Shown piece after piece: positions 4,042 to 64,000 of a stretch of DNA of 64,000 nt (position 1 is its first letter; every line of letters begins with the position of its first letter). The stretch spans positions 16,076-80,075 of the IMG/VR virus record IMGVR_UViG_3300003690_003399; one strand, 5' to 3'. The notes under the pieces are model-generated. The model was not told the origin of the DNA and ran no database searches. It was given only the letters and a program-made list of their open reading frames with translations. The translations under genes were made by a program, and so were the position numbers. This DNA is from a virus.

Positions 4042-4308
4042 ATGAGTATTGAAAATGAAAATCCAGATCTGCTTAAGCCAGTAGAGAAATCGAATGAACT
4101 AAAAGAGTGGCTTGTAGACTACGTAGGAAACAAATATGATCCAGATTCTGAAGAAGTAAATGTAGAAATGATTATTAAAACAATGGCTGACGAGTTTCCT
4201 GAATTTCTTTTAATTTTAGCCGAAGAAAATTTTATACGAGGATACCAACAAGCCATGGCTGACATCGATGAAGGAGAAAAGTTGATGAGAAAAGAAGGGC
4301 TGATCTAA
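4042..4308 (+). CDS. Hypothetical acidic protein (start revised from 4030)
   Basis: ATG 4030 overlaps the -10 box; ATG 4042 follows GGAG. Confidence 0.75.
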   Translation: MSIENENPDLLKPVEKSNELKEWLVDYVGNKYDPDSEEVNVEMIIKTMADEFPEFLLILAEENFIRGYQQAMADIDEGEKLMRKEGLI

Positions 4309-4310
4309 CA

Positions 4311-5012
4311 ATGAACTATATTTCGGAAAGTGCCGAGAGGGCGAAAAATAATAGTAGAGAAAAATATATTTATGGAGATAAATTAGTTTACATAAAAGAT
4401 CAATTGCCTTATGGATTTGATTTAGATTACGTACTCAAAACAATTGAGAATTTGATTCCGCGTAATTTTTTTGAAAACATTGATTCAATTTATATAGGAA
4501 AGTTTAAAGACTTTGAAAATGGAGACCTCCCCTTTAACGCAAAATACAAAGACAACGCTTTATATGTTACAAACAAACAAGATAACGAAAATGATATGAT
4601 GGATGATATTATACATGAAGTAGCACATGCTGTCGAAGAACGTTTTGGAGACCAAATTTATTCTGATTTTACAATAGAGAATGAATTCAAAGGCAAAAAG
4701 CGCACCCTTTATCACCTTTTAGATCAGGAGGGCTATGAACCTTCTTTAGAACAATTTGATAATGTTGAATATGACAAACATTTTGATCGATATCTTTATA
4801 AAGTAGTAGAATACCCCACCCTTAGTACTTTAACGACGGGCCTATTTTATTCTCCCTATGCGATAACCTCACTTAGAGAATATTTCGCCAACGGGTTCGA
4901 GAACTACTTTTTAAGAGACAAAAGCTATTTAAAGAAAATAAGCCCAGCAGTATATAGCAATATTGCTGATTTATTAGATAAACAATTAGGAGAAGAAAAA
5001 AATGAATATTGA
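4311..5012 (+). CDS. Zincin-like metallopeptidase
   Basis: HEVAH (HExxH) plus downstream EYFA third ligand. Confidence 0.65.
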   Translation: MNYISESAERAKNNSREKYIYGDKLVYIKDQLPYGFDLDYVLKTIENLIPRNFFENIDSIYIGKFKDFENGDLPFNAKYKDNALYVTNKQDNENDMMDDIIHEVAHAVEERFGDQIYSDFTIENEFKGKKRTLYHLLDQEGYEPSLEQFDNVEYDKHFDRYLYKVVEYPTLSTLTTGLFYSPYAITSLREYFANGFENYFLRDKSYLKKISPAVYSNIADLLDKQLGEEKNEY

Positions 5013-23302: not shown

Positions 23303-23995
23303 ATGACCAGTAAAAGAAAAAAAAACCACTACTTTACTAAAGTTCATGAACAGGCAATTATAGATTATTGTTCGTCTCATGATCAAAAAGAAAGAAACCA
23401 GTTGTATAATGAGTATATTGGACCCGCTTTTAACGAAATGGTAGATAAAATCGTTTATACATATAAGTTTACCAACTTACCAAATTGTGATTATTTGAGA
23501 GAAGATTGTAAAAATTGGCTAATAACTGTATTAAACAAATACGATCCAGAAAGGGGCTCGAAAGCTTTTTCTTATTTTAGCGTTATTACAAAAAATTGGT
23601 TTATTCATAAAGTCAAAAAAAATTCACAAAGATCTAGAAGAGAGGTGGTGATCGAAGACTATTGTGCCCCGATCAGTCAACAACAAAATATGCGCCACCC
23701 CTTAGTGGTCTACAACACATATATTCAGGATAGTATAAAAAATGAATTTTGGACCTCTTTTAGAGAACAAATAAGTGATTGGGAAAAAATACCTGTTAGA
23801 AATAATGAAAAAAAAGTTATTCAAGCTGTTAAGATTCTTTTCGAAGAATCTGAAAATATAGAAATTTTTAATAAAAAAGCTATTTACTTATACATACGAG
23901 AAATTACGGGCTTGAATACCAAACAAGTTGTTAGTAGTTTGAATAGAATCAGAGTTCGGTATAGGGAATTTAAAGAAAAATGGGACAAAGAATAA
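23303..23995 (+). CDS. Phage sigma factor, T4 gp55-like
   Basis: Region-2-like KYDPERGSKAFSYFSVITKNWFI; lies just before the structural module. Confidence 0.7.
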   Translation: MTSKRKKNHYFTKVHEQAIIDYCSSHDQKERNQLYNEYIGPAFNEMVDKIVYTYKFTNLPNCDYLREDCKNWLITVLNKYDPERGSKAFSYFSVITKNWFIHKVKKNSQRSRREVVIEDYCAPISQQQNMRHPLVVYNTYIQDSIKNEFWTSFREQISDWEKIPVRNNEKKVIQAVKILFEESENIEIFNKKAIYLYIREITGLNTKQVVSSLNRIRVRYREFKEKWDKE

Positions 23996-39454: not shown

Positions 39455-41253
39455 TGGCTATTAAAAGATATACAGCGGATGCAGACACAACAATAACAAA
39501 CGCCTTCAAATCAAACTTGTCTACTCGCGGTGTGAGTGGAAATATGGGCCAATCAGATATTCTTGAAGTCTTTTCGATTTACGCGCAAGCTTCAACAGCA
39601 TCGTCGGAGCTAGAAAGAGTTTTAATAAAGTTTCCCGCTAGCGGCACAGCCGCTGGCTATATTTCTTATGATCGATCACAGGGGGACATACCAGCCTCCG
39701 GGAGTGTTTCATTCTATTTAAGAATGTTCGATGCACCTCATTCGCAAACTACCCCTAAAGATTTCAATTTAATTATTTCTGCTGTTTCTCAGTCTTGGCA
39801 AGAAGGGCTCGGTCTCGATATGGAAGAATATTCCGACGAAGACGAGGCCAATTGGCTCTATGCAACCGACACCAAAATTCAAGCTAGTGCCTCGATTACA
39901 GTAAGGGCAAATACTGCCGCAAACACAATTACTTTTACTGGCTCAAACTCGAATTATTTATTTACATCTATTGATGATGCAACGCCAGCCCCAAATTATT
40001 TTCATATTGGTGCGAACACCAGCGCATGCGCTACAAATATAAAAACAATAATCGATGCATCTGCAAGCGCTGACTTTAGCGCATCTGTGGATTCTGCAGT
40101 TGTCACTATATACGCATTTACCGCTGGGACATCTGGAAATTCAGATTCTCTATCTTCAAGTTTAGCTAGCGTTTTTGATGTAACCGGAAGTGATAGTGTT
40201 GCCAACAGCGGTCTAAGTGGAACTTTTGCAGGGGGAGCCAACTTTACTTCATGGATAGCGGAAGGAGGCGATTATTTAACAGACGCTTCTTCTTCTTTTA
40301 CTGCATCTTTTGACACAGGGTTTGAAGATGTAGAATTAGATATTACTCCACTGGTTGAACAATGGATTAATAGCGCAGGCAATGAAGCAGTCTTAGGTGC
40401 TAGAGGGTCACAATTTTTCTTTAGGCGCCCCTACATAGAAGCGCGTTGGGATTCTTCCACTCAAGACAATCGAGGAAGTTTTTATTATAGTAGTTCATTG
40501 GCACCCGCAGCAGACAATTTAAACACTATTTATCTATATAATTATGTACGCGGGCAATTGAAAAACATCCCAGATATTGGAACAGGCAATATTTATATTA
40601 GGGCCTATTCTGGTTCGGCTGCTAATTCTGCCCCCTCGGGATCCAAATTACAATTAAGTATTGGCGGGGGTGTGATATCAACTGATCTTTATAATATCAC
40701 TGGAGGATATGTATCTCCCGGCGTCTACTCTGCATCCTTTGCGTTCACAGGATCCACCTCTTTAACACGAATATTCGATGTGTGGCATAGCGGGAGTACA
40801 CAATATTTTACCGGGACCATCAATCCAGCTAGCTTAACTCAAGTTTGGCCAGGCCAAGCATATAATCCAAATCAACAATACGTGTCTAGTATCACAAACT
40901 TAAAACCCTCGTATTCAAATCAAAATACAACTGCTAGATTCCGGTTATACACAAGAAAGAAAAATTGGAACCCAAACATTTATAGTGTGGCATCCGTAGC
41001 GGCACCCCTTGATTTGGTAGAGAGTGCTTATTATAGGATATACCGCGTAACTGATGACCTAAATATTATTTCTTATGGCACTGGTAGTGATAATAATACT
41101 AAACTATCTTATGATGATAGCGGCAGTTATTTTGATTTAGACATGTCGTTACTTGAAGCAGATAACGCATATGGGATCAAGTTTGTATATTATCTAAACG
41201 GCCAGTATAATCAACAGCCAGAAAAATTTATATTTAGAGTAGAAAAAGCATGA
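39454..41253 (+). CDS. Ser/Thr-rich virion structural protein
   Basis: In the baseplate operon; beta-rich; many SGS/TGS/SAS tripeptides. Confidence 0.65.
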   Translation: MAIKRYTADADTTITNAFKSNLSTRGVSGNMGQSDILEVFSIYAQASTASSELERVLIKFPASGTAAGYISYDRSQGDIPASGSVSFYLRMFDAPHSQTTPKDFNLIISAVSQSWQEGLGLDMEEYSDEDEANWLYATDTKIQASASITVRANTAANTITFTGSNSNYLFTSIDDATPAPNYFHIGANTSACATNIKTIIDASASADFSASVDSAVVTIYAFTAGTSGNSDSLSSSLASVFDVTGSDSVANSGLSGTFAGGANFTSWIAEGGDYLTDASSSFTASFDTGFEDVELDITPLVEQWINSAGNEAVLGARGSQFFFRRPYIEARWDSSTQDNRGSFYYSSSLAPAADNLNTIYLYNYVRGQLKNIPDIGTGNIYIRAYSGSAANSAPSGSKLQLSIGGGVISTDLYNITGGYVSPGVYSASFAFTGSTSLTRIFDVWHSGSTQYFTGTINPASLTQVWPGQAYNPNQQYVSSITNLKPSYSNQNTTARFRLYTRKKNWNPNIYSVASVAAPLDLVESAYYRIYRVTDDLNIISYGTGSDNNTKLSYDDSGSYFDLDMSLLEADNAYGIKFVYYLNGQYNQQPEKFIFRVEKA

Positions 41254-44200
41254 GCACAGACTATAGTAAGATATTTGGTCAAAAAGATATTATTTTGACT
41301 AATACAGATAGAGACACGTTAGCAGCATCAGCAGAATCTGTCAACTACATGACAGAATATTTTAATAAAAAACAAAGATTTGTACCGCCAGTAAACTTTT
41401 CAAACCCAAAATATTTTGCTAGATTTGGGTCTGCTGAAAAGTATTATATTGATGCTATCGATAGAATCTATAAAACATATCCCTACGATGGCTCGCTAAA
41501 AGAGCGAGTACAGTGGGAACTTAGTTCTTCCTACCTGGATCTTCACGTTTTTGAAAATGGTTACCCTCGCACAAATGGGTATGTCTTATTTTCTGCTGAA
41601 GGGTGGGGAACTCAAGTTGCGACTTCAGATGGTTATGGTGCACCAGCCACTTCTTCTTATGAATATATCTTATCTAAAGGCGGCCCCAACACATCTTATC
41701 GTAGCCAGGGAAAAAACATCAGAGATCAGACTGGAGACTATAAAGACGGGTATGCTAATGTTTGGGATGTCGACAAAAATAGAGAATCTAATCTAAAAAT
41801 TGGCGGTATCGATGGCAATACAGTTGAATTTTGGTTAAAGAAAGGTGAGTTCTTAGGATCTTCTCTCACCAACCAAGAAGTCTTATTCGACCTTCATACG
41901 AGCGAGTTCATTTCATCTAGTTTGAACTACGGGCGCCTAACAGTTGAGCTAACTGCATCCACTAGCGGAAGCCCATTCAGAGTCACTTATATGTCCGGGA
42001 CCGCCGGCTTTTCTTACGAAACTATCGGAAGCGGTATAGATACATCTTCTGTAGCAGACGACTCTTGGCACCACTATGCCTTTACTTTAAAAAACACAGA
42101 AAGCGCAGTAGAGGTTAACTTTTTTGTCGATGGCGCGTGTAACCACACAATTATTACTGGTTCTTCAATTAGTTATGTAAGTGGCAACATTAATGCAACA
42201 CTCGGCGCCTTAGCAACAGCACCATCGGGCACGTTTACCCCAACATTAGGGTGGGGTGGTCTATCTGGTTCTATGGATGAATTCAGATTTTGGAAATCCG
42301 AAAGAACTTCCCAACAAATAGGGCTCCAATATATTGAGCCAGTTGGCGGGGGCACCAATACTGACGACGCAAATACTACTCTTGGCGTTTATTATAAATT
42401 TAATGAAGGCATTACACTCACCGCTTCAATCGATAAAACCATTTTAGATTATTCCGGAAGAATTAGCAACGGCAACTTTGTAGGATACAATTCCTCAGCT
42501 AGAAATATTAATTCGGCCATGGTGCAATCTGGCAAAGTCGATAGAGAATTTAAAGATCCCATTTTGTATAACTTCCACCCAGAAGTGGTTTCGTATTATG
42601 GCACAAAAAAAGAGGAGGGGAGACAATATGATTATTCTAATAATTCATCAATCTATTTTACATTACCAGCATGGATTTTAGAAGAAGATGAAATCAAAGA
42701 ATACTCTCCATTAAGAAATTTTACACAAGTGATCGGCAGCTATTTTGATTCACTTGCTAGCCAAATTGAAGCCATTTCCAAATTAAAGCATAAAAATTAT
42801 TTAAGTTCAAGTTATAAATCATATCCTTTTTCTGACAGATTGTTGGAATCTGTTGGGTTTACTTATTTTCCAGAGTTGTTTTCTGACGCTACGGCACTAG
42901 AACAGTTTAGGAACAGAGACGATAAGAAGCTTTTTCAGCAAAAATTATATGATACAAAAAATCGTATTTATCAAAATATTTATAACAACATAGTTTACAT
43001 TTACAAAACAAAAGGAACGGAAAAGTCTTTTAGAAATCTTATTCGTTGTTTTGGCTTTGATGATGAGATTTATAAAATTAATCTATATGGTAATCGGGTT
43101 ACATACCAATTAAAAGATAACTACTCGTCTGTAGCAGAATCAAAAAATTATGTTAATTTTGCATTAACAGGCACACAAAAAGCAACAGTCCATTCATTCT
43201 CTTCGAGCGGCAATCCAAATTCTACATCATTTATTTCGAATGTCACCCCGAAAATGAACTACTTTGGTTTTACAATGGAAACAGAAGTTGCCTTTCCTAG
43301 GCGCTACAGTGTCGCAGATTCAAACATTACAGTACAATCGAATAAGGGAACAAGCAAAACTTTTAGAGCCTATGTACCTTTTAAGACAGCTTCTCTTTTC
43401 GGGATGCACCAAGTAAACGGAACTACCGAGAATGATTTAACATGGGCAACCACTGATTCCGCAAATTTTCAAGTTTATGCTATCAGAGACGAAGACCATT
43501 CAAAAAGATGCCGGTTTAAACTAACCGGCGTCGGAGCTACGGTCATACCAACATTGACGAGCAGCTATTTTGATGAAGTTTTTGATGATACTCGTTGGAT
43601 CTTTTCCGTCTCAGTAAAGCCAAAGATGTATCCACAAGCAGATTTACCATACTTGACCAGTGTTGCTGTCTCCACCGGCCCGGAACGTGGCTACACAGTA
43701 GAGTTTTATGGTGTGGAGAAGATATTAGATACTATTAAAAATGAATTTTTATTAACCGGCTCGATTACTTATAGCGACGGCCTCGCGCTATTAAATAATG
43801 CAAAAAGTATTTATATCGGAGCCCATCGTACCAACTTTTCTGGGTCCCTCCAAGAAAAATCTGATGGACACATTTCTTCTACGCGCGTTTGGCTAATGCC
43901 GCTCACTACGGGAACAATACAACAACACGCACAAGATGCTAAAAATTACGGAGTACCAAGCCCATATAGAAGTGGATATTTATACCAAACTTCAATGACG
44001 GGTACCCGCGTCCCCGAAATACATACATTAGTATTAAATTGGGTATTTGATACTTTAACTGGATCAGATTCTAGTGGAGAATTTGTCGGACAAGACTTCT
44101 CATCTGGCTCAACGAGTTTACAAAATCGCTATAACTGGATTGGGAATATTGTTGGCAAACAATATTTGCCAAAAGGTATTAATTTTCCACCTTCATTTTC

Positions 44201-47200
44201 CAAAACTCTAAATAAAAAATATGTTTATTCAGCAAAGAAACAATTACCAGAGTTTATTAATAGTTCAAACATGGTTAATGTCATGACCGATGATGACATA
44301 TTCTTTAATAAAGTTGATCTACTGAGACCTACAAACTATTATCTTCACATTGAAAAAAGCATGTATCAAACAATCTCTGAAGAAATGATAAGAATGTTTT
44401 CCTCAATTAAAGATTTTAATAATTTAATTGGGGAGCCAGTAAACAAATATCGTAGCAAATACAAACACATGGAAAAACTTCGTCAACTTTTCTTTGAGAG
44501 AGTAGGGAATACACCGGACCTAGATAAGTATATCGATTTTTATAAATGGGTTGACATCACATTAGATGTCCTCTTGGGGTACCTTGTACCAGCTTCAGCA
44601 GATATTGGTGATCAGTATGGCAGCAATATTCGTACATTAGTAGAAAATCATGTGCTTGCGCGCAATAAATATAAGTGGCAGTTCCCAACGATAGAAGACA
44701 AAACTCCAGACATAGAAGGTCATATTCTTAGTATTAACGAGCTTTTATATGGCTGGGAGTTCGGTCACAACCCGACAAGTAGTCTTCAGGCCGATAATTG
44801 TCTTTGGTGGAAAGAACGCGCAGAAAGAACCGACGCGCTAGCAAGTGGCGACTCAAATGTTAATAACGATAAACAAGCAATACTTAACTCTATTAACAAC
44901 GAGACGAATGCTAAGAACTACATGCTATATGATAGTGCAACTAGCACAACTTATTCTGGTTCTACGTTTGCAATCCGCCGATTAGCTAAACCATACAAAT
45001 TTAAAGTCGACGAATCTCGTACAACTAAGGGTGGTACAAATTATTATCCAAATAAAAAAGTGGACATCATTCGAACGGAAACCAATTTAGAAACTTCTAC
45101 AAATTTTCTTGCAGCTCCCGCAGCCAATGTAGAATCATTTAAAGATTGTAATGATGGACTTGATCTGATCACAAAACGTAAATATTCGTTTAATGCTCTT
45201 TTAAGAAGTGAATTAACAACAGCGACCGAGAAAAACTATTTCAACGCAAAGGGCGCCCTGTTTGCCCCATTCAGTATGTATAGTGCCTCCATTTCAGGGG
45301 GTTATTATGATACAGTTTCCAATAATTTTAAAACTTCTTTAGATATTACTAACTTACATGAAGATACCTATGGAACTTTATACGGTGTACCAGTACAGGG
45401 TCCGTTTACTGACAAGTATGTTGGAGGTCTTCAATCTCGTCATGTCGCCTTGACCGTTAATCCGGCACTGACAAGCTCCGCTAACCGCCCTGAAGGATGG
45501 TCTTTATCGTTTAGTAGCAATATCTTAACAATGTCAGGCCCAGCTGTGGGGGTCGAAGGCAGTCGTCCGAAAGCAACGCGGCTTAGAGACGAAACTGCTA
45601 AGCGCCCCATTAATGTGAGAAACATTCAACAAACAACAGGCTCTACAATAATTGGTAACTATACCAAAGATTATGATTTGTTGATGATCGGTGGTCGCTC
45701 AATTAATAATCGCTTTTTTGTCAAAAACGAAGGCGTTTCCGCAAGCTCGATAAATTCTCAAGCTGTAAGTGGTGTTTTAGATTATGATTTACCAGGTGCT
45801 GCACAGTCACAAAGAGATCGACAAGAAGTTGTTATAAATGGTTTGACTTCATCTGCACGCAATGATTATATTATTGTCAACAGATTCTCTGCACCTGGAG
45901 ACCCTTCAACGATGGGGTTTGCTTATTTAGATATCGAGGCGCAGGAATACTCAATTTATAATTCCTTACCATGGCGCAACTTAATTGTTCGCGACAGCCT
46001 CCAAGAATTATATACAGATCATGCAAAACAATTTGGGTATTTTAGTGATGCACAAAATTCAGCAAGCTATGTGTTGGCTGGCATGCCCTATCCTGGAACG
46101 AGCGGATCTGTAAACGCTCTAGATTATGCTGGAAGCGCGTCGTTTCACAAGGTTAATAGAAACCCGAGAAGAATTATTAAAAGCACAGGAGTAGAGTACG
46201 CCAGTTCATATGCTAGTGGAGTCATTTATGATAATTGGCACGTACAACATCAGATCCCACAATCTGATTTACAGTATGCGTGGATTACAGCTAGTGTAAT
46301 TGAAGGATATACCGGCTCAGCATATTATGGCTTTGAGCAACCAAATTTCAGCAATGCAAGTCTAGCTTCTACCGATATTACATTTTGTAGTGCTAGTGAC
46401 TTTGGCTCTTATTGGAAATCAGCATGGGGATTACGACTTTTTGGTGGTACATATGCTGAATTCGGATCGGATCAATTTGTTCCGACTGATTTTGCTGGCA
46501 TAAATTCTAATGTTTATGAGCCTATAACGTCGTCTTTGAACATTTTGGGATATCCATCAGGAGTAGGATCTTATGCCAACTGCTGTGTCACCCCTGGCAC
46601 CTTTCTTGGCTCATCCTACTATCCCCAACTTCTTAACGCTTTGATTCTCCACCGCCAAGGCCCATACGGGTGGCCTTCTTGGAAACAAATTAGAGGTGAA
46701 AGTCACCCTGTAATTAGAAATCATCGGAAAACTAATCGACAATCATTTTTGAAGCTAGAAAAAATTTCTAATGATACAGACGGTCAACCCCGAGATAAGA
46801 AAGTTTTAATTTCTCAAATAGAGCCGCCAGTAAGTTCAAAATATAAGCCGTTAATTCATAGTCTTTTCTTTAAACAAAACATCGATCCAAACAAGAATAA
46901 TTGGTGGAAAAATTCTGAAGAAATTATTATTGACCACACATATGCAAATGAAAAATGTTATTTTCCCCAAGTCGTTTCGGGCACAAAGGCGCTTATTGAT
47001 GGAAATATAGACTTAAATAAGATAGATTCTATTTCCACTTTGGCTGGGAGTATTTCTCAAGATGATAAAACTTTAATTTATGATTCTCTAAATAAGTTTA
47101 TTTTTGGAGACACAATGCAACCTGCGAACCCAATTAGCCAATTTAACTATCTTAAAATTAAAGAGGTTATTTATCCTCGTGAACACTATACGTATCTAAG

Positions 47201-50132
47201 TGGTACCCGAGAGCGCACGAACTTTGCAAATAATTTCTGGCGCGATACACGGAATGCGAGAGACACCGAAGGATCTCCAGATGGAGGTCCATGGGCCAAC
47301 TCACAAGGCTACATTGTTACCCAAAGTATGTGGCCACTAGACTGCCGCTCTGACACAAGTGTTCCCCCCATACCCAACTACTCTAATTTTACAGCATCTG
47401 CAGGTATGGAAGGGGAGCTACAAAATGGATATAGTTTGTTCTTCTCCTCCTCGAACACGGGCCCATTCGCGGCCGCCACCTATCTGCGCCGTGTACCCGA
47501 TAGTGCGTCAGAGGGAATACTGTATGCTGGTGATACCTTGTGGGAAGCAAACACACAAGCAGGAGTAAACCCATTTTATAATAATTATGCAGAATATATT
47601 GAAGAGGCAAAGAGGATTGGGAAAGATTATGGGATCCTACCAGAATTTAGAATTAGCGAACATATGGATTATTATATTAATAGTAATCCGGACGGCAATC
47701 CAAACTTTTTAGTAACCCCACAGCCACCAGGCTTATTCACATTGACTGGTTCGGTTCTTTCTAGTAGTGCCGACGAAGGATTTTATACTGTGTATTCATA
47801 CAGTGATTTTATGAAGTTTTTTGAGCTAGTTAAAAATGATTATATTAGTACGCCAATACCGCAAAAGGAAGCAGACGAGGACGCCGCCATAAGCACCATG
47901 GTCTCATATCCATCTGAATTAACTCTTGAATGCAAAGTTTTGAAAAAGTTTCTTCCATATGACGGATTTTACCCCGCGGAAAGAACAGTTCAATTAGCAA
48001 AATTATTTAGCCAATCTTATGGAGACTCAGTTATACACGCTGAAGGCGCTAACCCAAATTGGAGAACAATGTTGGCGCCATTATTTGCACCCGGACTATT
48101 ATATAATTCCATCAAATCTGGCATTGCAGTAGACTACCCAATCGTCAATGACACTCTTAGTGATGCTACTATAACTTTTACAGGATCTTCCGTTAATAAT
48201 TCGGCCGACTCAGGCGATGCACGCCTATCGGGAACATTTGGCGCCAGGCTTCCGTTTGAAGCTCTGGCTAGCCCAAAAACCTTTTTAGAGGGGACACACC
48301 TTGTCGACGCAGAGCCTAATCCACAAGCTTTTATTGATAGTAGTGGTAGTTTTATTGCCGCGGCAAACCCGCTGTTTATGTACGCAATGAATAACTTTTT
48401 AGCAGAAATTCCTTCATTCTTTTTGGAAAATAACTCATTAAGCACCTTGACCTCTTATGGAGACGTTAGCGCGGCGCCAACGATGGGCGAGGACGTGACA
48501 TATAAAATGAGAATTGTTCTTTCGAACGGCCAGTTTGATACTCTCCATACATTACAAAATGTTGAGAAGGGGTTTCCACCGGCCCTGGAACGAAGTGATA
48601 ACACTGCGTCGTTTATATACAACACTCCGGAAGTCACAATGTACAATCGCTCTTTTGATAGAAACTCCCCGGCCCGTTATTCCGCAAGCTTTGTAGGCGA
48701 CAACAATGCCACACTAGCTTACGGCTCTTCGTTTGGGCCACCTTGCGAGGCCTCGTCTTCTGTCAATGGGCACGAGGCTAGCTTTGAGCCATTTACACCT
48801 CCTTACTATAACGGCTACAGCCACATTGAAGTTTCTTTCCTCTCTGCGGTAGGCGGTGCAATGGAAATGTCCGATATTCTTGCGGCATGCCGGGAGAACG
48901 CAACTTATTTTAGAGAAACCACCAGATCTGGAAGTCGAGAAAGTTCTACGGCCGGAATTAATGCGATGCAAGCCAATGCGTCTTTAAATTGGGATCAACT
49001 AGTGGTTGACGAAGACGGAAGTGAAAGATGGGTAATTCAGCCGAAATGGGAATGTCCTATATTAGATTTTACTACTTCTGATATTACGTTGCCGGAAGGA
49101 GGAGGCTCCGGCTCCGTGGCAAAAGGCATGTGGCATCAATATGGTTCTATCCCATCCGCCGATAACGGTATATACTTATCAGTTCAAGATGTTATGGACC
49201 CAGAAGGAGGGTGGCAGCCTTCTTTGAAAAAACTACTTGGCTATTCCGATGATAATAGTAGAGTAAAATTAGGCGGTTTGGCTAAAAGCAAAACAATTAG
49301 TGAAGCCGTTGTTGCAATCCCGTTTAGGGCGGATCCCCAAAGCCCAAAAAAGAGGAAATATTTTAATATTAATCCGACGGTCATCGACAGCGCGCTGAAC
49401 CCGAATCCCGGCGCCGACATTCCCGATCCGGCTCCCGTTGCCCCTTCCCAAGGGGTTCTAGATATGGTTGAAAAAATGAAAAAATATGTAATTCCCCCAA
49501 CTTTTGATTTTATAACCAATGCTGAAGAGATCCCACCAATGGCCATGTTAATTTTTGAGTTTGAAACAAACTTAAGCCAGAAAGATTTAAGAAATATATG
49601 GCAGAATTTGCCACCAAATGATCAAGGGGATGCAAAAATAAGCAAAAGCCAAGCAGTTATCCCAGCAATGAAAGATATGATTTTTCCTCTCTTTGCAACG
49701 AGTCCTGGCAGCATGTTTGATCACTATGATAAAATACTTGGATTTCCAACCGATGTACAATGGCTCGTTTTTAAAGTAAAACAAAAAGCAAAAACTAATT
49801 ATTTTGATATAACAGCAAAAGATGAATCTTTAAAAGGCGAGACCATCGATGCCCCTTGGCAAACACAAATATCATCTGAGATACCAAACTATAGTTTTAA
49901 TTGGCCATATGATTTCTTCTCCATGATAGAATTAGCCAAACTAGAGATCACATATAAAATAGATCCGCATGGGGATCCGACCCCAAGCGATGGTGGCGCG
50001 CCGCCGACGGATCCCGAGTTTGGAGATGCTGTAGATAATCAACGTGATAACGCGCCCGGCAAAGAAAAGACTCCCGAGAAAGATGGCCCAACGGTGCGGG
50101 AAACAGCGGTTGTGATAGCCCGAACCGATTGA
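41250..50132 (+). CDS. Giant 2960 aa baseplate protein with LamG/ConA-like domains
   Basis: TVEFWLK, WHHYAF, GSMDEFRFW (LamG); YKTKGT resembles gp7/gpI wedge motif. Confidence 0.7.
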   Translation: MSTDYSKIFGQKDIILTNTDRDTLAASAESVNYMTEYFNKKQRFVPPVNFSNPKYFARFGSAEKYYIDAIDRIYKTYPYDGSLKERVQWELSSSYLDLHVFENGYPRTNGYVLFSAEGWGTQVATSDGYGAPATSSYEYILSKGGPNTSYRSQGKNIRDQTGDYKDGYANVWDVDKNRESNLKIGGIDGNTVEFWLKKGEFLGSSLTNQEVLFDLHTSEFISSSLNYGRLTVELTASTSGSPFRVTYMSGTAGFSYETIGSGIDTSSVADDSWHHYAFTLKNTESAVEVNFFVDGACNHTIITGSSISYVSGNINATLGALATAPSGTFTPTLGWGGLSGSMDEFRFWKSERTSQQIGLQYIEPVGGGTNTDDANTTLGVYYKFNEGITLTASIDKTILDYSGRISNGNFVGYNSSARNINSAMVQSGKVDREFKDPILYNFHPEVVSYYGTKKEEGRQYDYSNNSSIYFTLPAWILEEDEIKEYSPLRNFTQVIGSYFDSLASQIEAISKLKHKNYLSSSYKSYPFSDRLLESVGFTYFPELFSDATALEQFRNRDDKKLFQQKLYDTKNRIYQNIYNNIVYIYKTKGTEKSFRNLIRCFGFDDEIYKINLYGNRVTYQLKDNYSSVAESKNYVNFALTGTQKATVHSFSSSGNPNSTSFISNVTPKMNYFGFTMETEVAFPRRYSVADSNITVQSNKGTSKTFRAYVPFKTASLFGMHQVNGTTENDLTWATTDSANFQVYAIRDEDHSKRCRFKLTGVGATVIPTLTSSYFDEVFDDTRWIFSVSVKPKMYPQADLPYLTSVAVSTGPERGYTVEFYGVEKILDTIKNEFLLTGSITYSDGLALLNNAKSIYIGAHRTNFSGSLQEKSDGHISSTRVWLMPLTTGTIQQHAQDAKNYGVPSPYRSGYLYQTSMTGTRVPEIHTLVLNWVFDTLTGSDSSGEFVGQDFSSGSTSLQNRYNWIGNIVGKQYLPKGINFPPSFSKTLNKKYVYSAKKQLPEFINSSNMVNVMTDDDIFFNKVDLLRPTNYYLHIEKSMYQTISEEMIRMFSSIKDFNNLIGEPVNKYRSKYKHMEKLRQLFFERVGNTPDLDKYIDFYKWVDITLDVLLGYLVPASADIGDQYGSNIRTLVENHVLARNKYKWQFPTIEDKTPDIEGHILSINELLYGWEFGHNPTSSLQADNCLWWKERAERTDALASGDSNVNNDKQAILNSINNETNAKNYMLYDSATSTTYSGSTFAIRRLAKPYKFKVDESRTTKGGTNYYPNKKVDIIRTETNLETSTNFLAAPAANVESFKDCNDGLDLITKRKYSFNALLRSELTTATEKNYFNAKGALFAPFSMYSASISGGYYDTVSNNFKTSLDITNLHEDTYGTLYGVPVQGPFTDKYVGGLQSRHVALTVNPALTSSANRPEGWSLSFSSNILTMSGPAVGVEGSRPKATRLRDETAKRPINVRNIQQTTGSTIIGNYTKDYDLLMIGGRSINNRFFVKNEGVSASSINSQAVSGVLDYDLPGAAQSQRDRQEVVINGLTSSARNDYIIVNRFSAPGDPSTMGFAYLDIEAQEYSIYNSLPWRNLIVRDSLQELYTDHAKQFGYFSDAQNSASYVLAGMPYPGTSGSVNALDYAGSASFHKVNRNPRRIIKSTGVEYASSYASGVIYDNWHVQHQIPQSDLQYAWITASVIEGYTGSAYYGFEQPNFSNASLASTDITFCSASDFGSYWKSAWGLRLFGGTYAEFGSDQFVPTDFAGINSNVYEPITSSLNILGYPSGVGSYANCCVTPGTFLGSSYYPQLLNALILHRQGPYGWPSWKQIRGESHPVIRNHRKTNRQSFLKLEKISNDTDGQPRDKKVLISQIEPPVSSKYKPLIHSLFFKQNIDPNKNNWWKNSEEIIIDHTYANEKCYFPQVVSGTKALIDGNIDLNKIDSISTLAGSISQDDKTLIYDSLNKFIFGDTMQPANPISQFNYLKIKEVIYPREHYTYLSGTRERTNFANNFWRDTRNARDTEGSPDGGPWANSQGYIVTQSMWPLDCRSDTSVPPIPNYSNFTASAGMEGELQNGYSLFFSSSNTGPFAAATYLRRVPDSASEGILYAGDTLWEANTQAGVNPFYNNYAEYIEEAKRIGKDYGILPEFRISEHMDYYINSNPDGNPNFLVTPQPPGLFTLTGSVLSSSADEGFYTVYSYSDFMKFFELVKNDYISTPIPQKEADEDAAISTMVSYPSELTLECKVLKKFLPYDGFYPAERTVQLAKLFSQSYGDSVIHAEGANPNWRTMLAPLFAPGLLYNSIKSGIAVDYPIVNDTLSDATITFTGSSVNNSADSGDARLSGTFGARLPFEALASPKTFLEGTHLVDAEPNPQAFIDSSGSFIAAANPLFMYAMNNFLAEIPSFFLENNSLSTLTSYGDVSAAPTMGEDVTYKMRIVLSNGQFDTLHTLQNVEKGFPPALERSDNTASFIYNTPEVTMYNRSFDRNSPARYSASFVGDNNATLAYGSSFGPPCEASSSVNGHEASFEPFTPPYYNGYSHIEVSFLSAVGGAMEMSDILAACRENATYFRETTRSGSRESSTAGINAMQANASLNWDQLVVDEDGSERWVIQPKWECPILDFTTSDITLPEGGGSGSVAKGMWHQYGSIPSADNGIYLSVQDVMDPEGGWQPSLKKLLGYSDDNSRVKLGGLAKSKTISEAVVAIPFRADPQSPKKRKYFNINPTVIDSALNPNPGADIPDPAPVAPSQGVLDMVEKMKKYVIPPTFDFITNAEEIPPMAMLIFEFETNLSQKDLRNIWQNLPPNDQGDAKISKSQAVIPAMKDMIFPLFATSPGSMFDHYDKILGFPTDVQWLVFKVKQKAKTNYFDITAKDESLKGETIDAPWQTQISSEIPNYSFNWPYDFFSMIELAKLEITYKIDPHGDPTPSDGGAPPTDPEFGDAVDNQRDNAPGKEKTPEKDGPTVRETAVVIARTD

Positions 50133-58463: not shown

Positions 58464-58478
58464 CTAATTATATAAATA
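58464..58478 (+). promoter_or_regulatory. Candidate late promoter CTAATTA followed by TATAAATA
   Basis: 28 nt upstream of ATG 58492; AAGGAG RBS follows. Confidence 0.5.
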
Positions 58479-58491: not shown

Positions 58492-59466
58492 ATGGGATTT
58501 TTAGATAATAGTGGTGACATTATTTTAGATGCAGTGTTGACCGACGCTGGCCGCAAAAGACTAGCAGAGGGAAATGGCTCATTTAAAATTACTAAATACG
58601 CTTTTGGCGACGACGAGATTAACTATGGTAATTATGATCCCACTAACACCAACGGCAGCGCATACTATGATTTACAAATTCTACAAACCCCCATACTAGA
58701 AGCCTTTACAAACAACACCGCAACAATGAAATCAAAATTGATGACCTTAACCAATAACAATATTCTTTATTTACCCGTAATCATTGTAAGTCAGGCCATC
58801 TCAAGATACCAACTTAATAATATTATAGGATCCGGCTCAGTTGTAGTACCAGTAGATATCACAACTGTTAACAAATTCACTGATGTCGACAGCGCACCCG
58901 GGCTCGGCATGGGGCCTTATATTGATGGCACGAACCCTGGTGGATCTACGAGTCAAGATATTAGATGTGATCAAGGTCTAAACACATTAGAAATACCAGC
59001 AACATATAAGCTTGATGCTGAACTGACAGAACATCAATATATTGTAGAAATAGATAATCGTTTTGGACAAATTACAGCCGGCACATTAGCCGGCACCGGC
59101 CAAGTGGGACAAGTTAAACAATCATATTCTTTTATTGATGATGATAATGTTGCTAGCTATTATTTGTCAACAGCAGTATACGTTGATGATATCAAAGCAA
59201 AATCCACAACGGGCATCAGCAACGCCGAAGAACAATCGAATGACGCCCTCAAAGGCCCACGTGGCACCAAGTTAGAAATTAGAATTAGAGCCTCCACAAA
59301 TTTGAGGACTAGCACGTATCTATTTGAAAGATTGGGAAGCACTTTTTCTTTTACTATCAACGGCGTCGTCACCGATTTTTATGCCATTGATACAATTGTC
59401 AGAATCACCGGCGCAACTACAGGATATAAATTGGACCTCCCAGTTAAATTTGTGAAACAACAGTAA
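58492..59466 (+). CDS. Putative baseplate/fibre-attachment protein
   Basis: LTDAGRKRLA...ITKYAFGD resembles the N-terminus of P2 gpH-type tail-collar fibre domains. Confidence 0.6.
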   Translation: MGFLDNSGDIILDAVLTDAGRKRLAEGNGSFKITKYAFGDDEINYGNYDPTNTNGSAYYDLQILQTPILEAFTNNTATMKSKLMTLTNNNILYLPVIIVSQAISRYQLNNIIGSGSVVVPVDITTVNKFTDVDSAPGLGMGPYIDGTNPGGSTSQDIRCDQGLNTLEIPATYKLDAELTEHQYIVEIDNRFGQITAGTLAGTGQVGQVKQSYSFIDDDNVASYYLSTAVYVDDIKAKSTTGISNAEEQSNDALKGPRGTKLEIRIRASTNLRTSTYLFERLGSTFSFTINGVVTDFYAIDTIVRITGATTGYKLDLPVKFVKQQ

Positions 59467-59482
59467 TTAAAGGAAGAAACAT

Positions 59483-60547
59483 ATGGCTACTACATTTAAA
59501 ACGTTTTTGAATAACGACATTGCAACAACAAGAACCTTGTTGCACGAAGCAATCCCCATAACGGGAACCATTGTATCGGGGACATATAGTGATAATAATA
59601 TTAAAAACTACACTCATGGAATGTTTCAATCTGTTTATGATTATCCATATTTAAGTTCTTCCGCAAACCATATTTTTGATCTTACGGTTGGAATGGGCGC
59701 CAATAGTTTCTTTTCTTCTTCTAAAGTTAGTCAACAATTTACCAAAAAGAGAAATGTTTATGACCAAATGGCACAAGTTTTAGTTCCCTATGATATTAGC
59801 GGCAATATTCAGGCGTTTGACCAGGACGGCAAAATCCAAGATGGTGGTAACAAATTCAATGATGCCTTTTTCATTAATTTTGCTCGCCTCTTAAACAAAG
59901 ACGAAGTTAAAAAAGGATCCTTTACCATAGCCTTCTTAACGGGAGGAGTTGGAGGAGACACCACTAATTCATTAACAATATCAGATTATGGCGCCACAAG
60001 CAGCTTTAAAGTGAACAGCCCCACTGGTGAATACGGGTTGCTTTACACAAGTTCTGCCACCCCAGCCACAGACAGCGCGGTCGGGCATATTTATTATCAA
60101 GCCGGAATCGCAGTTATAACCGCTAGCATTTTTAGTAATAATTACTTAACCCCAACAGATTTTTGTGAATTCGGGGCCCCCGGAGCTACTTACGATACAG
60201 GCAGCTACCAAGCCGTTTTATCAGCTTCTACAATTCAATCCTTTGCGGACGGCTTAAGAAACAGATTATATAATATTCAATTTAATAATACAACTGAATT
60301 AAATTCAACAATTTACTTCTGTCGCGCAAATACAGGCGATTATAATTACTCTTCAAACCCGACATATATAAGCTCTAGTAAAATTGTGGTGAAAGCTAAT
60401 ATGCCTTTCAATGAACCCATTTCATATATAACAACAATTGGTCTATATTCTCCTCAAAATGAACTTTTGGCCGTAGCTAAAGTATCAGAGCCATTGAAGA
60501 AGACTCCTAGCAATGAGCTTACGTTGCGCGTCAGATTAGATTACTAA
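59483..60547 (+). CDS. Putative baseplate/tail structural protein
   Basis: C-terminal YITTIGLY...ELLAVAK..P.KK shared with the next gene. Confidence 0.65.
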   Translation: MATTFKTFLNNDIATTRTLLHEAIPITGTIVSGTYSDNNIKNYTHGMFQSVYDYPYLSSSANHIFDLTVGMGANSFFSSSKVSQQFTKKRNVYDQMAQVLVPYDISGNIQAFDQDGKIQDGGNKFNDAFFINFARLLNKDEVKKGSFTIAFLTGGVGGDTTNSLTISDYGATSSFKVNSPTGEYGLLYTSSATPATDSAVGHIYYQAGIAVITASIFSNNYLTPTDFCEFGAPGATYDTGSYQAVLSASTIQSFADGLRNRLYNIQFNNTTELNSTIYFCRANTGDYNYSSNPTYISSSKIVVKANMPFNEPISYITTIGLYSPQNELLAVAKVSEPLKKTPSNELTLRVRLDY

Positions 60548-60551
60548 TGTT

Positions 60552-61724
60552 ATGCCTTATTATGAATTTAAAGACAAAGACATCCTTAGAAATACTTTAA
60601 AGACACATCCAGAATATCAATTTAATATTTATAGTGGAAGCATTTATTTAAATAATCAATATAATATATCTGGCGCCCATGTAAATAATGTAACTATGGT
60701 ACCCTCTGGCTTTGTTAGCTTATACGAATTAAACATTGATAGAACTTCCGATGATAAAATTTATCCTTTTATCACAAAGGATGGTAATTTTACATCTATT
60801 GGAACAGTTACAAATGCTGAGTATAATAGTAGCTTTCAATATGGAGACGTGATCAGCGGCTCTTATCCAATGTCGGCTAGTATTGTACGGCAAAGATTTG
60901 TCACTGGTCATGGTGATTCAGCTACTTCTCGGATTACAGCCTTAAAAAACACTTTAAATTATTATACATATCTCAGCCCCGCTTATCAATATAGTTCTTC
61001 CTTGGGAGATAAAGCTCAACAAGAAATTAATTTGATAAGTATTCCATCTATCTTTTTTGATAGTGGAATAAAGCCTGGTTCTGTTGATTTAAAGTTTTAT
61101 ATTACTGGCACTCTTGTTGCACAAGCCACCGATAAAAATAAAAATGGTGAATTATTTCAAGTAACAGGAAGTACATATGCACAAGCTAACGGTTCAAACT
61201 CTGTGGCTGGAGTTGTTTTATATAATGAGGGCTTTGTTCTGTTAACTGGAAGTTGGGATATAACAGAAGCTAGCTATGATTTTGGAGACATCACTCGTGT
61301 AGCTTCTTGGCGAGATTTCGCAGCCGGCGCCAACGATAATCAAGATACCACACTCACTCTTTCGGCCAGTTTCCAATTTAATTTTAAAGGAACGAATGAA
61401 ATCTCCACACTAGCTATGTATGCAATTGCGCCCAAGGGCAACTTAAACCATTCAAGTAATCCAACTTATCGTTTATATGAGAGTGCCTCTTTGGCACCTC
61501 GCTCGGAGCGCCATGCTTATGTAGAGTCTCCAAACATCCCAATGGCAAATACAATAAGCAGTTCATTCTGCAATTTTTCTGCGTCCTTTAAAAAACAAAC
61601 ATTTATTAGTAAAATAGGGATATATGATGACGATAGAAATCTTATAGCGGTAGCAAATTTGGCCACCCCTGTAAAGAAGACTGAAGATCGAGCGCTCACT
61701 TTCAAATTAAAACTAGACATTTAG
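60552..61724 (+). CDS. Putative baseplate/tail structural protein, paralog of 59483
   Basis: IKPGS, G.V.Y..G, N.S.NPTY, FISKIGIYD..NLIAVA..PVKK. Confidence 0.65.
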   Translation: MPYYEFKDKDILRNTLKTHPEYQFNIYSGSIYLNNQYNISGAHVNNVTMVPSGFVSLYELNIDRTSDDKIYPFITKDGNFTSIGTVTNAEYNSSFQYGDVISGSYPMSASIVRQRFVTGHGDSATSRITALKNTLNYYTYLSPAYQYSSSLGDKAQQEINLISIPSIFFDSGIKPGSVDLKFYITGTLVAQATDKNKNGELFQVTGSTYAQANGSNSVAGVVLYNEGFVLLTGSWDITEASYDFGDITRVASWRDFAAGANDNQDTTLTLSASFQFNFKGTNEISTLAMYAIAPKGNLNHSSNPTYRLYESASLAPRSERHAYVESPNIPMANTISSSFCNFSASFKKQTFISKIGIYDDDRNLIAVANLATPVKKTEDRALTFKLKLDI

Positions 61725-61736
61725 AGAATCAAACAT

Positions 61737-62309
61737 ATGATATTAGGACTAGACATCTCAACCAGTATCACTGGCTATACAGTGGTAGACCATGAAGGCA
61801 AAATAATTCGCTGCGATGCGTGGGACATGCGTAATAAAAAGATATTTAAAGATCATTTTGAAAAGGCAAAATCTATAAAAGATGACCTTTGTTTTTTAAA
61901 AGCCCAGTACCCCATTAGTCAAATTTATATTGAAGAGCCATTTATGTTTTTTAACTCGGGTGGCTCTTCAGCAAAAACCATGGCGGTCCTTCAAAAGTTT
62001 AATGGGATTGTTTCATGGATTTGTTATGATATATTTACTCTCACACCAAATTATGTGAGAGCCGGCGAAGCACGGAAGCTTTGTGGAATAAAAGTACATA
62101 GAGGACAGAAAGCAAAGAAAGTTGTCATTCAATGGCTACTTGACAATGAGCCAGATTTTAAGGTAGAATATACATCAAAAAACAATCCGAAGCCTAAATA
62201 TTATGATATGGCGGACTCAGTGGTAATTGCTAAAGCTGGCTACTATTTATTCAAGAAGCAGAACCCACAAGTTTGTTATAACAAGGACTTACCAAATGAA
62301 ACTAACTAA
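61737..62309 (+). CDS. ruvC: RuvC-like Holliday junction resolvase
   Basis: ILGLDIS..TG, IYIEE, DMADS catalytic acidic residues. Confidence 0.82.
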   Translation: MILGLDISTSITGYTVVDHEGKIIRCDAWDMRNKKIFKDHFEKAKSIKDDLCFLKAQYPISQIYIEEPFMFFNSGGSSAKTMAVLQKFNGIVSWICYDIFTLTPNYVRAGEARKLCGIKVHRGQKAKKVVIQWLLDNEPDFKVEYTSKNNPKPKYYDMADSVVIAKAGYYLFKKQNPQVCYNKDLPNETN

Positions 62310-62712
62310 ATCAAAACTTAAGCAACTAATCAAAGAAGTCTTTGAGGGCGAAAGCAAAGGAACCGACGCATACCCCCAATATGAATATCTTTTAGATGAA
62401 TTAGTTGACGCCGCCAGAAACGCTATAATGCCACTGGCAGTTGAAAAACTAAAAGAGGTGGGGGCCTTGAGCGAAGAAGAGGGAAGAGGTTTAACTTATA
62501 ACGATGTTGAATTAGAAATTGAAGAACCCTTAATGGATGCGCTTAAGCCACTAGCTAAATTAATTCAAGATAAAGTAGATCATGCCCCGGGCCGAGAGGA
62601 TGAAGAAGAATACGAAGAAGAGGAAGAGAAATACGCGCCTTCTACGGAATATACGAGTCCGAGTTTTCGCACGGCGCGAATGCAAAGCGGCTATTTCCAA
62701 GGAAAAAATTAA
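62296..62712 (+). CDS. Acidic protein with MKLTKSKLKQLIKE leader, copy 1 (start revised from 62227)
   Basis: AAGGA upstream; leader shared with the next three genes. Confidence 0.8.
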   Translation: MKLTKSKLKQLIKEVFEGESKGTDAYPQYEYLLDELVDAARNAIMPLAVEKLKEVGALSEEEGRGLTYNDVELEIEEPLMDALKPLAKLIQDKVDHAPGREDEEEYEEEEEKYAPSTEYTSPSFRTARMQSGYFQGKN

Positions 62713-63075
62713 ATGAAACTAACTAAATCAAAACTTAAGCAACTCATTAAAGAAGCATTCGAAGAAGAACTCGATGAGCCAGGTACCGGCGAAGAACGGT
62801 ACAACAATCGAGGGCCCCACCCGGAAGGTGCGCTTCCAGGCCAAGGCCCCGGGGAAAAGGACTGGTGGGTCCCTGTAATGAGTCAGCTGATTCATGATGC
62901 AGCGGCCTTGTTTAAAAACGTGCCCGGCCGCGGCAAGGAGCTTTTAATAGAAAATTTCGAAATGACCGCTGAAGCATGGAAGAAAGACCTAGGTGGCTAT
63001 GAGACAAAATGGAAAGCAGAACTAGGAGCTGACCACCCAGAAGAGGAATACGACGAAGAAGAGAGAGAAATCTAA
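62713..63075 (+). CDS. Acidic protein with leader, copy 2
   Basis: MKLTKSKLKQLIKE; abuts the upstream stop. Confidence 0.85.
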   Translation: MKLTKSKLKQLIKEAFEEELDEPGTGEERYNNRGPHPEGALPGQGPGEKDWWVPVMSQLIHDAAALFKNVPGRGKELLIENFEMTAEAWKKDLGGYETKWKAELGADHPEEEYDEEEREI

Positions 63076-63458
63076 TGAAACTTACTAACTCAAAACTTAA
63101 ACAACTTATTAAAGAAATAGCAGAAGAAAGCGAATGGGATGTTAGCAAGCGCACCTCGTTTCCTCGCGTCGTAGCCCAGATCTTAAGCGCCCTAAGAGAA
63201 GCACAAGACATTCTCGAAGGTGGCCACCTAGATGAAGAAGCGCCAGTTTCTTCTTCCACTATAGAAAATATACAAAAGATATTAGATCATCCCGCGCTTG
63301 CGGCGATGGAAGAAATGGTACCTCCCGAGGAAGATGAATATGAAGCATCTGTTTATGACAAAGAAGAATCTGCTGCTCGCCGAGAAGGCCCGTCAACTCC
63401 GATGACACCAGAAGACAGCGCGCCCCTTTGGGACGACGATGACGAAGAGGGCTGGTAA
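63075..63458 (+). CDS. Acidic protein with leader, copy 3
   Basis: MKLTNSKLKQLIKE; TAATG coupling. Confidence 0.85.
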   Translation: MKLTNSKLKQLIKEIAEESEWDVSKRTSFPRVVAQILSALREAQDILEGGHLDEEAPVSSSTIENIQKILDHPALAAMEEMVPPEEDEYEASVYDKEESAARREGPSTPMTPEDSAPLWDDDDEEGW

Positions 63459-63459
63459 A

Positions 63460-63795
63460 ATGAAACTAACAAAATCACAACTAAAGCAAATCATTAAAGA
63501 AGAGCTTCAAAAAGTATTGCAAGAACGGCAGCGGCGGCCAGCCGAAACCATCGGAGGGACGAAGGAGTACCCCTATGTCCCGGACATAGAACCCACACCG
63601 GAAGATTATGAATGCACAGACGTAAGCGATTGCTATGAAATATTTCCCTCTGTGGCCGGCCAGTGTGATGAAATCGTTTGTCTAGAGTGCCGGCCACCGG
63701 CCAATCGCATGCCTTGGCCAACGCACCGGCCGCGCGGTCGGTGTTACGACAAAGTAACCAAGGAGTACTGGGATGAGGATTACGAGACGTCTTAA
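63460..63795 (+). CDS. Cys-rich protein with leader, copy 4 (start revised from 63439)
   Basis: MKLTKSQLKQIIKEE; six Cys in the body. Confidence 0.8.
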   Translation: MKLTKSQLKQIIKEELQKVLQERQRRPAETIGGTKEYPYVPDIEPTPEDYECTDVSDCYEIFPSVAGQCDEIVCLECRPPANRMPWPTHRPRGRCYDKVTKEYWDEDYETS

Positions 63796-63812
63796 AATGC
63801 CATAGTAAAGTT

Positions 63813-63830
63813 ATGAACCTAACTAAATAA
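63813..63830 (+). pseudogene. Dead fifth leader copy (MNLTK*)
   Basis: ATGAACCTAACTAAATAA vs ATGAAACTAACTAAATCA, 16/18 nt, TCA to TAA. Confidence 0.6.
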
Positions 63831-63834
63831 ACCC

Positions 63835-63863
63835 TTGACATATTAAATTACATTTGATAATAT
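63835..63863 (+). promoter_or_regulatory. Sigma70-type promoter with extended -10
   Basis: TTGACA (63835-63840), 17 nt spacer, TGn-TAATAT (63858-63863). Confidence 0.7.
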
Positions 63864-63869
63864 TTATAC

Positions 63870-64000
63870 ATGCACTTTGACAAACTTCGAATCCTCGAAG
63901 AAATACTAGGAAACAATTACCGATCAAACGATGAACACTTATTCTTTTGTCCGTTTTGCAAACACCACAAAAGAAAGATGTCAATAAATATATCTAAAAA
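63870..64000 (+). CDS. DNA primase N-terminal zinc-binding domain, runs off the window
   Basis: MHFDKLRILEEILGNNYRSNDEHLFFCPFCKHHKRKMSINISK; absent from the ORF track. Confidence 0.7.
   Translation, partial: MHFDKLRILEEILGNNYRSNDEHLFFCPFCKHHKRKMSINISK

Follow-up and report, generated by a model that had tools for sequence, protein, structure and literature searches.

The 64,000-nt stretch of DNA analysed here, referred to as the window, comprises bases 16076-80075 of an 80,075-bp contig from an uncultured marine T4-like phage (IMG/VR record IMGVR_UViG_3300003690_003399) with an estimated completeness of 45%. Near its end lie four consecutive genes, g1 to g4, whose small acidic products begin with the same short peptide, which we call the leader or tag. 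From sequence comparison and gene context we estimate a probability of roughly 0.6 that this tag is a capsid-targeting propeptide, similar in function to the capsid-targeting sequence (CTS) of bacteriophage T4 and unrelated to it in sequence. The coordinates of the four genes and of the features around them are collected in Table 1.

Both the listing of open reading frames (ORFs) and the sequence itself showed that g1-g4 all begin MKLT[KN]S[KQ]LKQ[LI]IKE, and a six-frame scan of the window recovered these four copies and none besides. The genes start 417, 362 and 385 nt apart. Counted from the ATG of g1, the overlap with the preceding RuvC-like gene is 14 nt, and the following junctions read TAAATG (g1/g2), TAATG (g2/g3) and TAA-A-ATG (g3/g4). 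The bodies have a pI of 4.2-4.9 and a GC content of 0.43-0.54, whereas GC is 0.21-0.24 in the leader and 0.36-0.40 in the genes nearby; GC at third codon positions (GC3) is raised in g2 and g4, up to 0.56. These values bear out a first-pass annotation of the region, which had described four translationally coupled genes with a common 14-codon leader, a unit repeating every 350-420 nt, and acidic, more GC-rich bodies. Because GC jumps at the joint between leader and body, the composition suggests that the bodies were imported and joined to a resident tag. A degenerate DNA pattern located a fifth copy outside the window. It heads a basic, Cys-rich protein of 114 aa at contig position 14321, 1.7 kb ahead of the window's first base.

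Pairwise comparison of the five contig copies gave 33 synonymous and 12 non-synonymous codon differences, and for codons 2-14 the proportion of differences was 0.415 at synonymous sites (pS) and 0.040 at non-synonymous sites (pN). Among 107 non-redundant copies from related contigs, Glu14 was present in 107/107, Leu8 in 106/107, Thr4 in 104/107 and I12 in 103/107, and the Leu, Thr, Ser and Ile codons were free to vary synonymously. Information content drops from about 4 bits to <1 bit beyond residue 16, where a weaker signal persists as hydrophobic residues at 19-20 and Glu22 in 50/107 copies. Selection on the peptide is therefore strongly supported by these alignments, as had been proposed from the mostly synonymous differences between copies, and the reported I-K-E ending, an L/I-x-E motif, is retained across nearly all of the set. 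At the Glu codons, the GAA:GAG ratio was 99:8 at codon 14 vs 47:46 at codon 15. A second [LIVM]xE by residue 40 occurs in 98/114 copies, its commonest end being residue 22; these are motif occurrences and hence candidate cut sites. In the window, a second L-x-E stands at residues 20-22 as L-D-E in g2 and within ELQKVLQE in g4.

A scan with a leader hidden Markov model (HMM) found 158 copies in the DNA of the related loci that we fetched, and 152/158 were at an ATG or GTG, which confirmed the N-terminal position. The other 6/158 were internal, in uninterrupted ORFs with two to four leaders. One example, the L050 ORF at 2997-4808 (- strand), encodes 576 aa with 4 leader copies, the internal ones without Met; multi-leader ORFs are also found in L035, L045 and G001 (about 142289-142631) and in the library proteins P0001, P0006, P0008 and P0027. 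Internal copies are often Met-less and are frequently preceded by E-N-K. Such ORFs resemble polyproteins made of several cargoes, or array genes that have become fused. As Met-less leader copies lie inside uninterrupted ORFs, a function tied to the start codon is ruled out on the basis of these reading frames, which are compatible with cargo units joined at protease sites.

The baseplate wedge proteins encoded in the window (gp25-like and gp6-like), together with its gp55-like late sigma factor and its RuvC-like resolvase, identify the phage as a myovirus of the T4 superfamily. The contigs that carry the leader all scale to about 175-190 kb and form a single clade of 'far-T4' myoviruses; they are tailed, with baseplate, portal, terminase and protease genes. 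The capsid protein of the clade is gp23-like (phrog_138, E=7e-70), and its nearest cultured relatives are those of Microcystis phage Mel-JY01, Flavobacterium phage vB_FspM_immuto and Rhodothermus phage RM378, at 37-49% identity.

The connection between the leader and head assembly is made through the prohead protease. PF03420 (Peptidase S77, the T4 gp21 family) was detected in 20/49 carrier contigs with E values of 1e-25 to 1e-35, including all four carrier genomes that are >=89% complete, and the closest relative having a head module (G037, RuvC 71% identical) encodes a gp21-type protease. One protease of the clade is encoded at L062:17536-18144 (- strand). The gene that immediately follows the protease, either adjoining it or overlapping with it, carries the tag in canonical or variant form at 11/17 protease loci (7/12 when distinct loci are counted). 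The canonical leader follows the protease in L082/84, L083 and L087/88, and the variants are VKITKLRLRRIIKEE, MGITREQLEQIIREE, MKLSREDLERMIKEE and ..KSIKRVIKEE. The bodies of these post-protease genes are unrelated and range from 109 to 362 aa. The next gene encodes a conserved head-module protein of ~141 aa that starts MKKSELKKVLKPIIKECIRE. Its N-terminus is related to the leader, with which 22 residues can be aligned, the terminal hydrophobic-x-E among them. The leader genes and this leader-like 141-aa protein are located between the protease and scaffold genes.

Other proteins of the clade's head module carry comparable motifs. In the capsid protein, an L-R-E is conserved at 57-59, just ahead of the mature domain. 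Residues 6-8 of the protease form an L-x-E (T4 gp21 has LIE-9; PMC9026906), and the scaffold-like protein of 344 aa is acidic and LxE-rich. A T4-like cleavage logic thus appears to be retained in the clade, judging from these motifs. Two genes after the prohead protease, within the head module, there is a gene for a ribosomal protein bS21-like product of ~77 aa (L058:123-356, - strand; equivalents in L060, L061, L085, L086 and L093). Its equivalent in Mel-JY01 (L098:5143-5370) is annotated RpsU.

The tag is widespread and portable. A degenerate pattern matched 52 loci in IMG/VR, and a 32-column leader profile gave 9,477 matches (50%-identity clusters, E<=1e-3) among 1.84 billion representatives; those examined, the best 150 of the 9,477, were all unnamed metagenomic proteins. 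From the fetched loci, 118 non-redundant bodies fell into 90 BLAST clusters, 79 of them singletons. These counts substantiate the portability part of the proposal that a packaging-type tag is fused to interchangeable bodies. The leader proteins have a median length of 115 aa, with bodies of 60-600 aa. Body pI has a median of 5.0, and 63% are <5.5 vs 29% of background ORFs. Pfam gave no domain in 19/20 large leader proteins, the exception being DUF5661, and no enzyme cargo, immunity genes or toxin domains were detected in the 20; leaders on clearly non-virion enzymes, which would have spoken against packaging, thus found no support in this set.

The degenerate pattern had 0 matches in 185,579 bacterial and archaeal species genomes, and the peptide string did not occur in the searchable papers. 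In a tblastn search of 50,697 phage records, no T-even phage was matched, and the one weak match was in a 484-kb uncultured phage. Among the capsid proteins of the phage collection, the one from that phage, LR756508.1 (171952-173517), is the closest, at 39% identity, and the phage's leader-like match near 189655, the only one in the collection, is 16 kb from the capsid gene. One clear variant of the leader occurs in the cultured phage vB_FspM_immuto, on immuto35A_190, a DUF5661 protein that begins MKKSQLRQIIKEALD. At the nucleotide level, blastn of positions 59000-64000 against the phage records found no match.

We then compared the bodies of g1-g4 with one another and with known proteins. They have no mutual BLAST similarity at E<0.01 and no Pfam or PHROG match. 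Profiles of the g1 and g3 families aligned in hhalign at E=4e-7 with the leader; with the leader removed, E was 0.05 and the probability 1%. Paralogy of g1 and g3 by sequence, a possibility that we considered, is not demonstrable at that value. AlphaFold predicted the same architecture for both: a leader helix, a helical hairpin and a disordered acidic tail, with a linker between leader helix and hairpin in g1. The g1 model (mean pLDDT, the predicted local distance difference test, of 70) has helices H5-17, H28-54 and H68-95, and the g3 model (mean pLDDT 66) has helices H5-18, H23-47 and H60-79. As these predicted layouts are alike, the earlier description of the bodies as unrelated is valid at the sequence level only, and g1 and g3 may, on the strength of the models, be very remote paralogs. 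Searching the PDB with the g1 model in Foldseek produced nothing at E<=0.001; the DNA mimic GamS of lambda came up at E~4, which is not evidence of relationship.

The g1 body family has 21 homologs, every one leader-bearing. For g2, a single homologous cluster was found among 5.8 billion proteins, and local BLAST gave 41% identity to one G001 protein; the ESM Atlas gave no relatives of g4 and nothing usable for g2. The conserved C-terminal tail module of g3, ARREGPSTPMTPEE...DDDDEEGW (window 63330-63455; written YDKEEAAARREGPSTPMTPEESAALWDDDDEEGW as a module), is also fused to other bodies, and many members of the leader-protein families close with a stretch of acidic residues and then a terminal Trp. 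Acidic tails with an aromatic end are known from SSB and T7 gp2.5, and the tails of the leader proteins recall these. A second N-terminal tag, (L)(L/I)(F/M)ENWR, was noticed on three consecutive, larger proteins of 313, 383 and 721 aa encoded on the same contig ahead of the window (G000:C1:1262-5494; starts 1262, 2181 and 3329), followed in two of the three by LL(L/I)E-G near residue 20, and the g3-family relative P0219 begins MKELFEGWR. The ENWR-type tag possibly represents a further class of head-targeting propeptide used by this phage.

Array content differs between relatives. Seven related loci have a common order of structural gene, RuvC, zinc-finger (primase-like) gene and Mre11-like nuclease gene, and the RuvC-like gene serves as the synteny anchor in all seven and as the conserved left anchor of the array. 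Leader genes follow RuvC in three of these loci, numbering 4 in the window, 2 in L028 (RuvC 90% identical) and 1 in L044 (RuvC 71%); in more distant relatives they follow the zinc-finger gene, with 2-3 per locus. The interval delimited in the first-pass annotation ends at 63830, coinciding with an 18-nt leader remnant. The remnant and its 33-nt carrier are missing from the closest relative, L028, and the promoter region downstream is common to both, so the remnant looks, from this alignment, like the scar of a lost cassette. Gain and loss of cassettes at the leader is supported at the sequence level by the 4/2/1 array content, the shifted slot, the leader scar and the GC jump, and the same observations uphold the idea that the repeat acts as a recombination handle.

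Diverse cargo with a single short tag is the arrangement of the T4 internal proteins, which have only a 10-19-aa CTS in common that gp21 removes at L/I-x-E and which occur as >30 variants in hypervariable loci (PMC9026906, PMC3012670, PMC2839356). The genes analysed here resemble that system in having a short N-terminal propeptide as the sole common part, ending in I-x-E as in IPI, IPII, IPIII and Alt, and in a carrier lineage whose head genes follow the T4-type order and include a protease of the gp21 family (S77). In T4, Asp in place of the Glu of this motif prevents processing and leaves targeting intact. Tagged genes likewise occupy hypervariable loci whose content differs between close relatives, as seen from the seven syntenic loci and the leader scar. 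The leader differs in being longer (16-22 aa), often with two candidate cut sites, in its thousands of clusters vs about 30 variants, in its multi-leader polyprotein ORFs, and in that leader genes often stand right after the protease gene.

We propose that g1-g4 are small cargo proteins with an N-terminal propeptide of ~16-22 residues. The propeptide would form an amphipathic helix, MKLTKS(K/Q)LKQ(L/I)IKE-E-(L/I), often followed by hydrophobic-x-E near residue 22, and this helix would dock the protein in the scaffolding core of an assembling T4-superfamily prohead. A gp21-type protease would then cut after Glu14 of I-K-E and/or at the second hydrophobic-x-E, and the mature body would stay inside the head, leaving with the DNA or being expelled as core proteins are. 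The bodies may include ejected anti-defence proteins or DNA mimics, as the first-pass annotation suggested. Since it is short, self-sufficient and the same on every gene, the tag probably doubles as a homology patch for cassette gain, cassette loss, polyprotein fusion and exchange between phages.

Several observations weigh against capsid targeting. Packaging and cleavage are deduced here from protease presence, gene position and motif, and [LI]xE is a common tripeptide. The copies compared above were gathered with peptide-based patterns, which makes the conservation within the tag partly a product of construction, although the synonymous divergence is not. Glu directly follows Glu14 in 87% of copies and would thus occupy P1' of the putative cut. 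The cargo is mostly acidic, whereas T4 IPI-III are basic and DNA-associated. The array in the window adjoins recombination and replication genes rather than a head module, and the contig itself, at 45% completeness, is without a head module and showed no PF03420 match, so that the link to the protease comes from relatives. The leader is absent from Mel-JY01 and RM378, which are among the cultured phages closest in capsid sequence. Finally, when MKLTKSQLKQIIKEEL is set beside the T4 CTS, MKTYQEFIAE (PMC9026906), only MK... and I-x-E are common by eye. As sequence homology between the two tested negative, the leader is best regarded as either a functional analogue of the T4 CTS or a homologue too diverged to be shown as such. 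The earlier suggestion of capsid targeting therefore stands on circumstantial grounds, namely the protease in all four near-complete carriers, the post-protease genes, the head-module N-terminus and Glu14.

The best surviving alternative, in our view unlikely, is a sub-variant of the same proposal in which the tagged proteins are accessory, scaffold-like parts of the prohead core, brought in by the leader, that are degraded and expelled before DNA packaging and are not delivered to the host. T4 gp22, gp67 and gp68 are core proteins with this fate. In being acidic and either helical or disordered, the bodies resemble both the scaffold-like protein of the clade and the T4 core proteins. The alternative is also in keeping with gene order, since the genes for tagged proteins and for the leader-like 141-aa protein are flanked by those for the protease and the scaffold. 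However, [LI]xE occurred 163 times in the bodies against 170 expected from composition-matched shuffles (z=-0.6), and the lack of LxE enrichment argues mildly against degradation at multiple sites. Thousands of rapidly exchanged bodies, with a copy number that varies between close relatives, better fit accessory payloads.

Next, and also unlikely, the leader could be a docking helix for a partner outside the capsid, such as a host protein, a phage chaperone or a polymerase, with bodies that modulate the partner and an I-x-E that is incidental. The predicted amphipathic helix suits such a role, as does the location of the window's array beside recombination and replication genes, and the packaging interpretation itself comes from gene context. 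Left unexplained would be the leader genes right after the prohead protease at 7 of the 12 distinct loci, the related N-terminus of the conserved head-module protein, and the combination of strict N-terminal position, invariant Glu14 and a stop in conservation after I-K-E-E.

We consider it very unlikely that the leader is a recognition sequence for a modifying enzyme, as in ribosomally synthesized and post-translationally modified peptides (RiPPs) or radical-SAM/SPASM systems. RiPPs do combine a common N-terminal leader with hypervariable 'cores', both g4 and the fifth copy are rich in Cys, and the window has one radical-SAM gene, at about 15049. That gene, however, is part of a cluster for sugar biosynthesis at a distance of 47 kb from the array, the bodies, at 60-600 aa, far exceed RiPP cores, and the tag is missing from the cellular genomes (0 in 185,579). 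A radical-SAM/RiPP tag was rejected on the absence of PF04055 from three of the four near-complete carriers (G002, G003 and G043; 89-100% complete). Least probable of all is that the repeat acts at the nucleotide level, for instance as an enhancer of translation initiation or a site of recombination, with peptide conservation as a by-product: the leader is very A-/AT-rich (GC 0.21-0.24) and its codon choice is skewed (GAA:GAG 99:8 at codon 14), but pN/pS is ~0.1 with synonymous sites 41% diverged, the Leu, Thr, Ser and Ile codons vary freely, and in-frame internal copies distant from start codons keep the peptide.

Three further systems were compared with the proposed capsid-targeting propeptide. 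In phiKZ and SPN3US, propeptides of ejection and inner-body proteins are cut by diverged gp21 homologs at S/A-x-E (PMC9026906, PMC5694885). The likeness lies in many head-internal proteins processed after Glu by a gp21-type protease and in redundant cleavage sites within the propeptides; in contrast, those propeptides are not one common portable tag, the proteins are confirmed by virion mass spectrometry, and the leader clade is unrelated to phiKZ. Encapsulin cargo-loading peptides also steer diverse cargo into an HK97-fold shell by means of a short terminal peptide. Those peptides usually sit at the C terminus, are not cleaved off by a protease and belong to cellular operons, whereas the leader is found in tailed phages; pairing of cargo with a shell gene in a cellular genome was not seen, with 0 leader matches in the 185,579 cellular genomes. 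Polymorphic toxin arrays, such as the 'orphan' modules of contact-dependent inhibition (CDI) and Rhs systems, have payload cassettes joined at a conserved motif. They share with the leader genes a conserved delivery part with hypervariable payloads, tandem arrays, truncated remnants and a junction that acts as a recombination handle; they differ in that no immunity genes or toxin domains were detected here (19/20 large leader proteins being Pfam-less), and in that the conserved part here is just 16 aa and the system is phage-borne.

A broader proposal, which we offer tentatively and hold to be possible though somewhat short of an even chance, is that MKLTKSQLKQIIKEEL is the universal head-loading address of an abundant, uncultured marine far-T4 clade. 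Its cargo would then be the largest known virion-delivered repertoire of phage proteins, with ~10^4 families that are nearly all domain-less, protease-cut polyproteins and, often, an acidic Trp-ended tail. If so, searches with the tag could uncover first-strike anti-defence effectors, and the tag itself could serve as a packaging handle. Should the tag be a capsid address, one short peptide would flag thousands of marine-phage proteins that are injected with the DNA, a class that includes the anti-restriction protein IPI of T4; almost no leader protein has a known fold or function. The CTS principle would extend from three coliphage proteins to a deep-branching marine lineage, and would be seen to work with an unrelated tag sequence, acidic cargo and polyproteins. 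Concrete objects for a test are immuto35A_190 of the cultured carrier vB_FspM_immuto and a protease/substrate pair suited to co-expression.

Table 1. Coordinates of the tagged genes and of surrounding features in the window
Feature	Position	Strand	Description
g1	62296-62712	+	138 aa; leader 62296-62337; acidic body of 122 aa
g2	62713-63075	+	120 aa; leader 62713-62754; acidic, largely disordered body of 104 aa
g3	63075-63458	+	127 aa; leader 63075-63116 with K5N; helical body; acidic tail module
g4	63460-63795	+	111 aa; leader 63460-63501 (MKLTKSQLKQIIKE), then ELQKVLQE; 7-Cys body; pI 4.9
Leader remnant ATGAACCTAACTAAATAA	63813-63830	+	16/18 nt match to leader start; Ser codon changed to stop
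Sigma-70-like promoter (predicted)	63835..63863	+	TTGACA, 17 nt, TAATAT, with TG; nearly identical in L028
RuvC-like Holliday junction resolvase	61737..62309	+	phrog_159, E=3.5e-11
TATAAATA, T4 late-promoter consensus	58471..58478	+	14 nt before the gene at 58492; single motif match
gp55-like late sigma factor	23303-23995		phrog_234

The genes from 58492 to 63795 are tightly packed on one strand, and the sigma-70-like promoter sits in the sole non-coding gap, between the transcription unit of the array and the next gene. With TATAAATA upstream, contiguous genes to 63795 and the sigma-70-like promoter after the array, the arrangement of the sequence indicates that the array probably ends a late transcription unit.

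The gene after the array (window 63870-64000; oriented region 1514-2443 of L028) starts MHFDKLRILEEILG...CPFCKHHKRK. Its product, conserved and ~310 aa long, is a zinc-finger protein that may be a primase. In relatives, the gene next after this one encodes a fused Mre11/Rad50-like protein of ~1050 aa. Elsewhere in the window, two giant ORFs of 2455 and 2960 aa (29788-37155 and 41250-50132), neither with a PHROG match, flank the baseplate wedge genes and presumably encode tail-fibre or baseplate-associated proteins.

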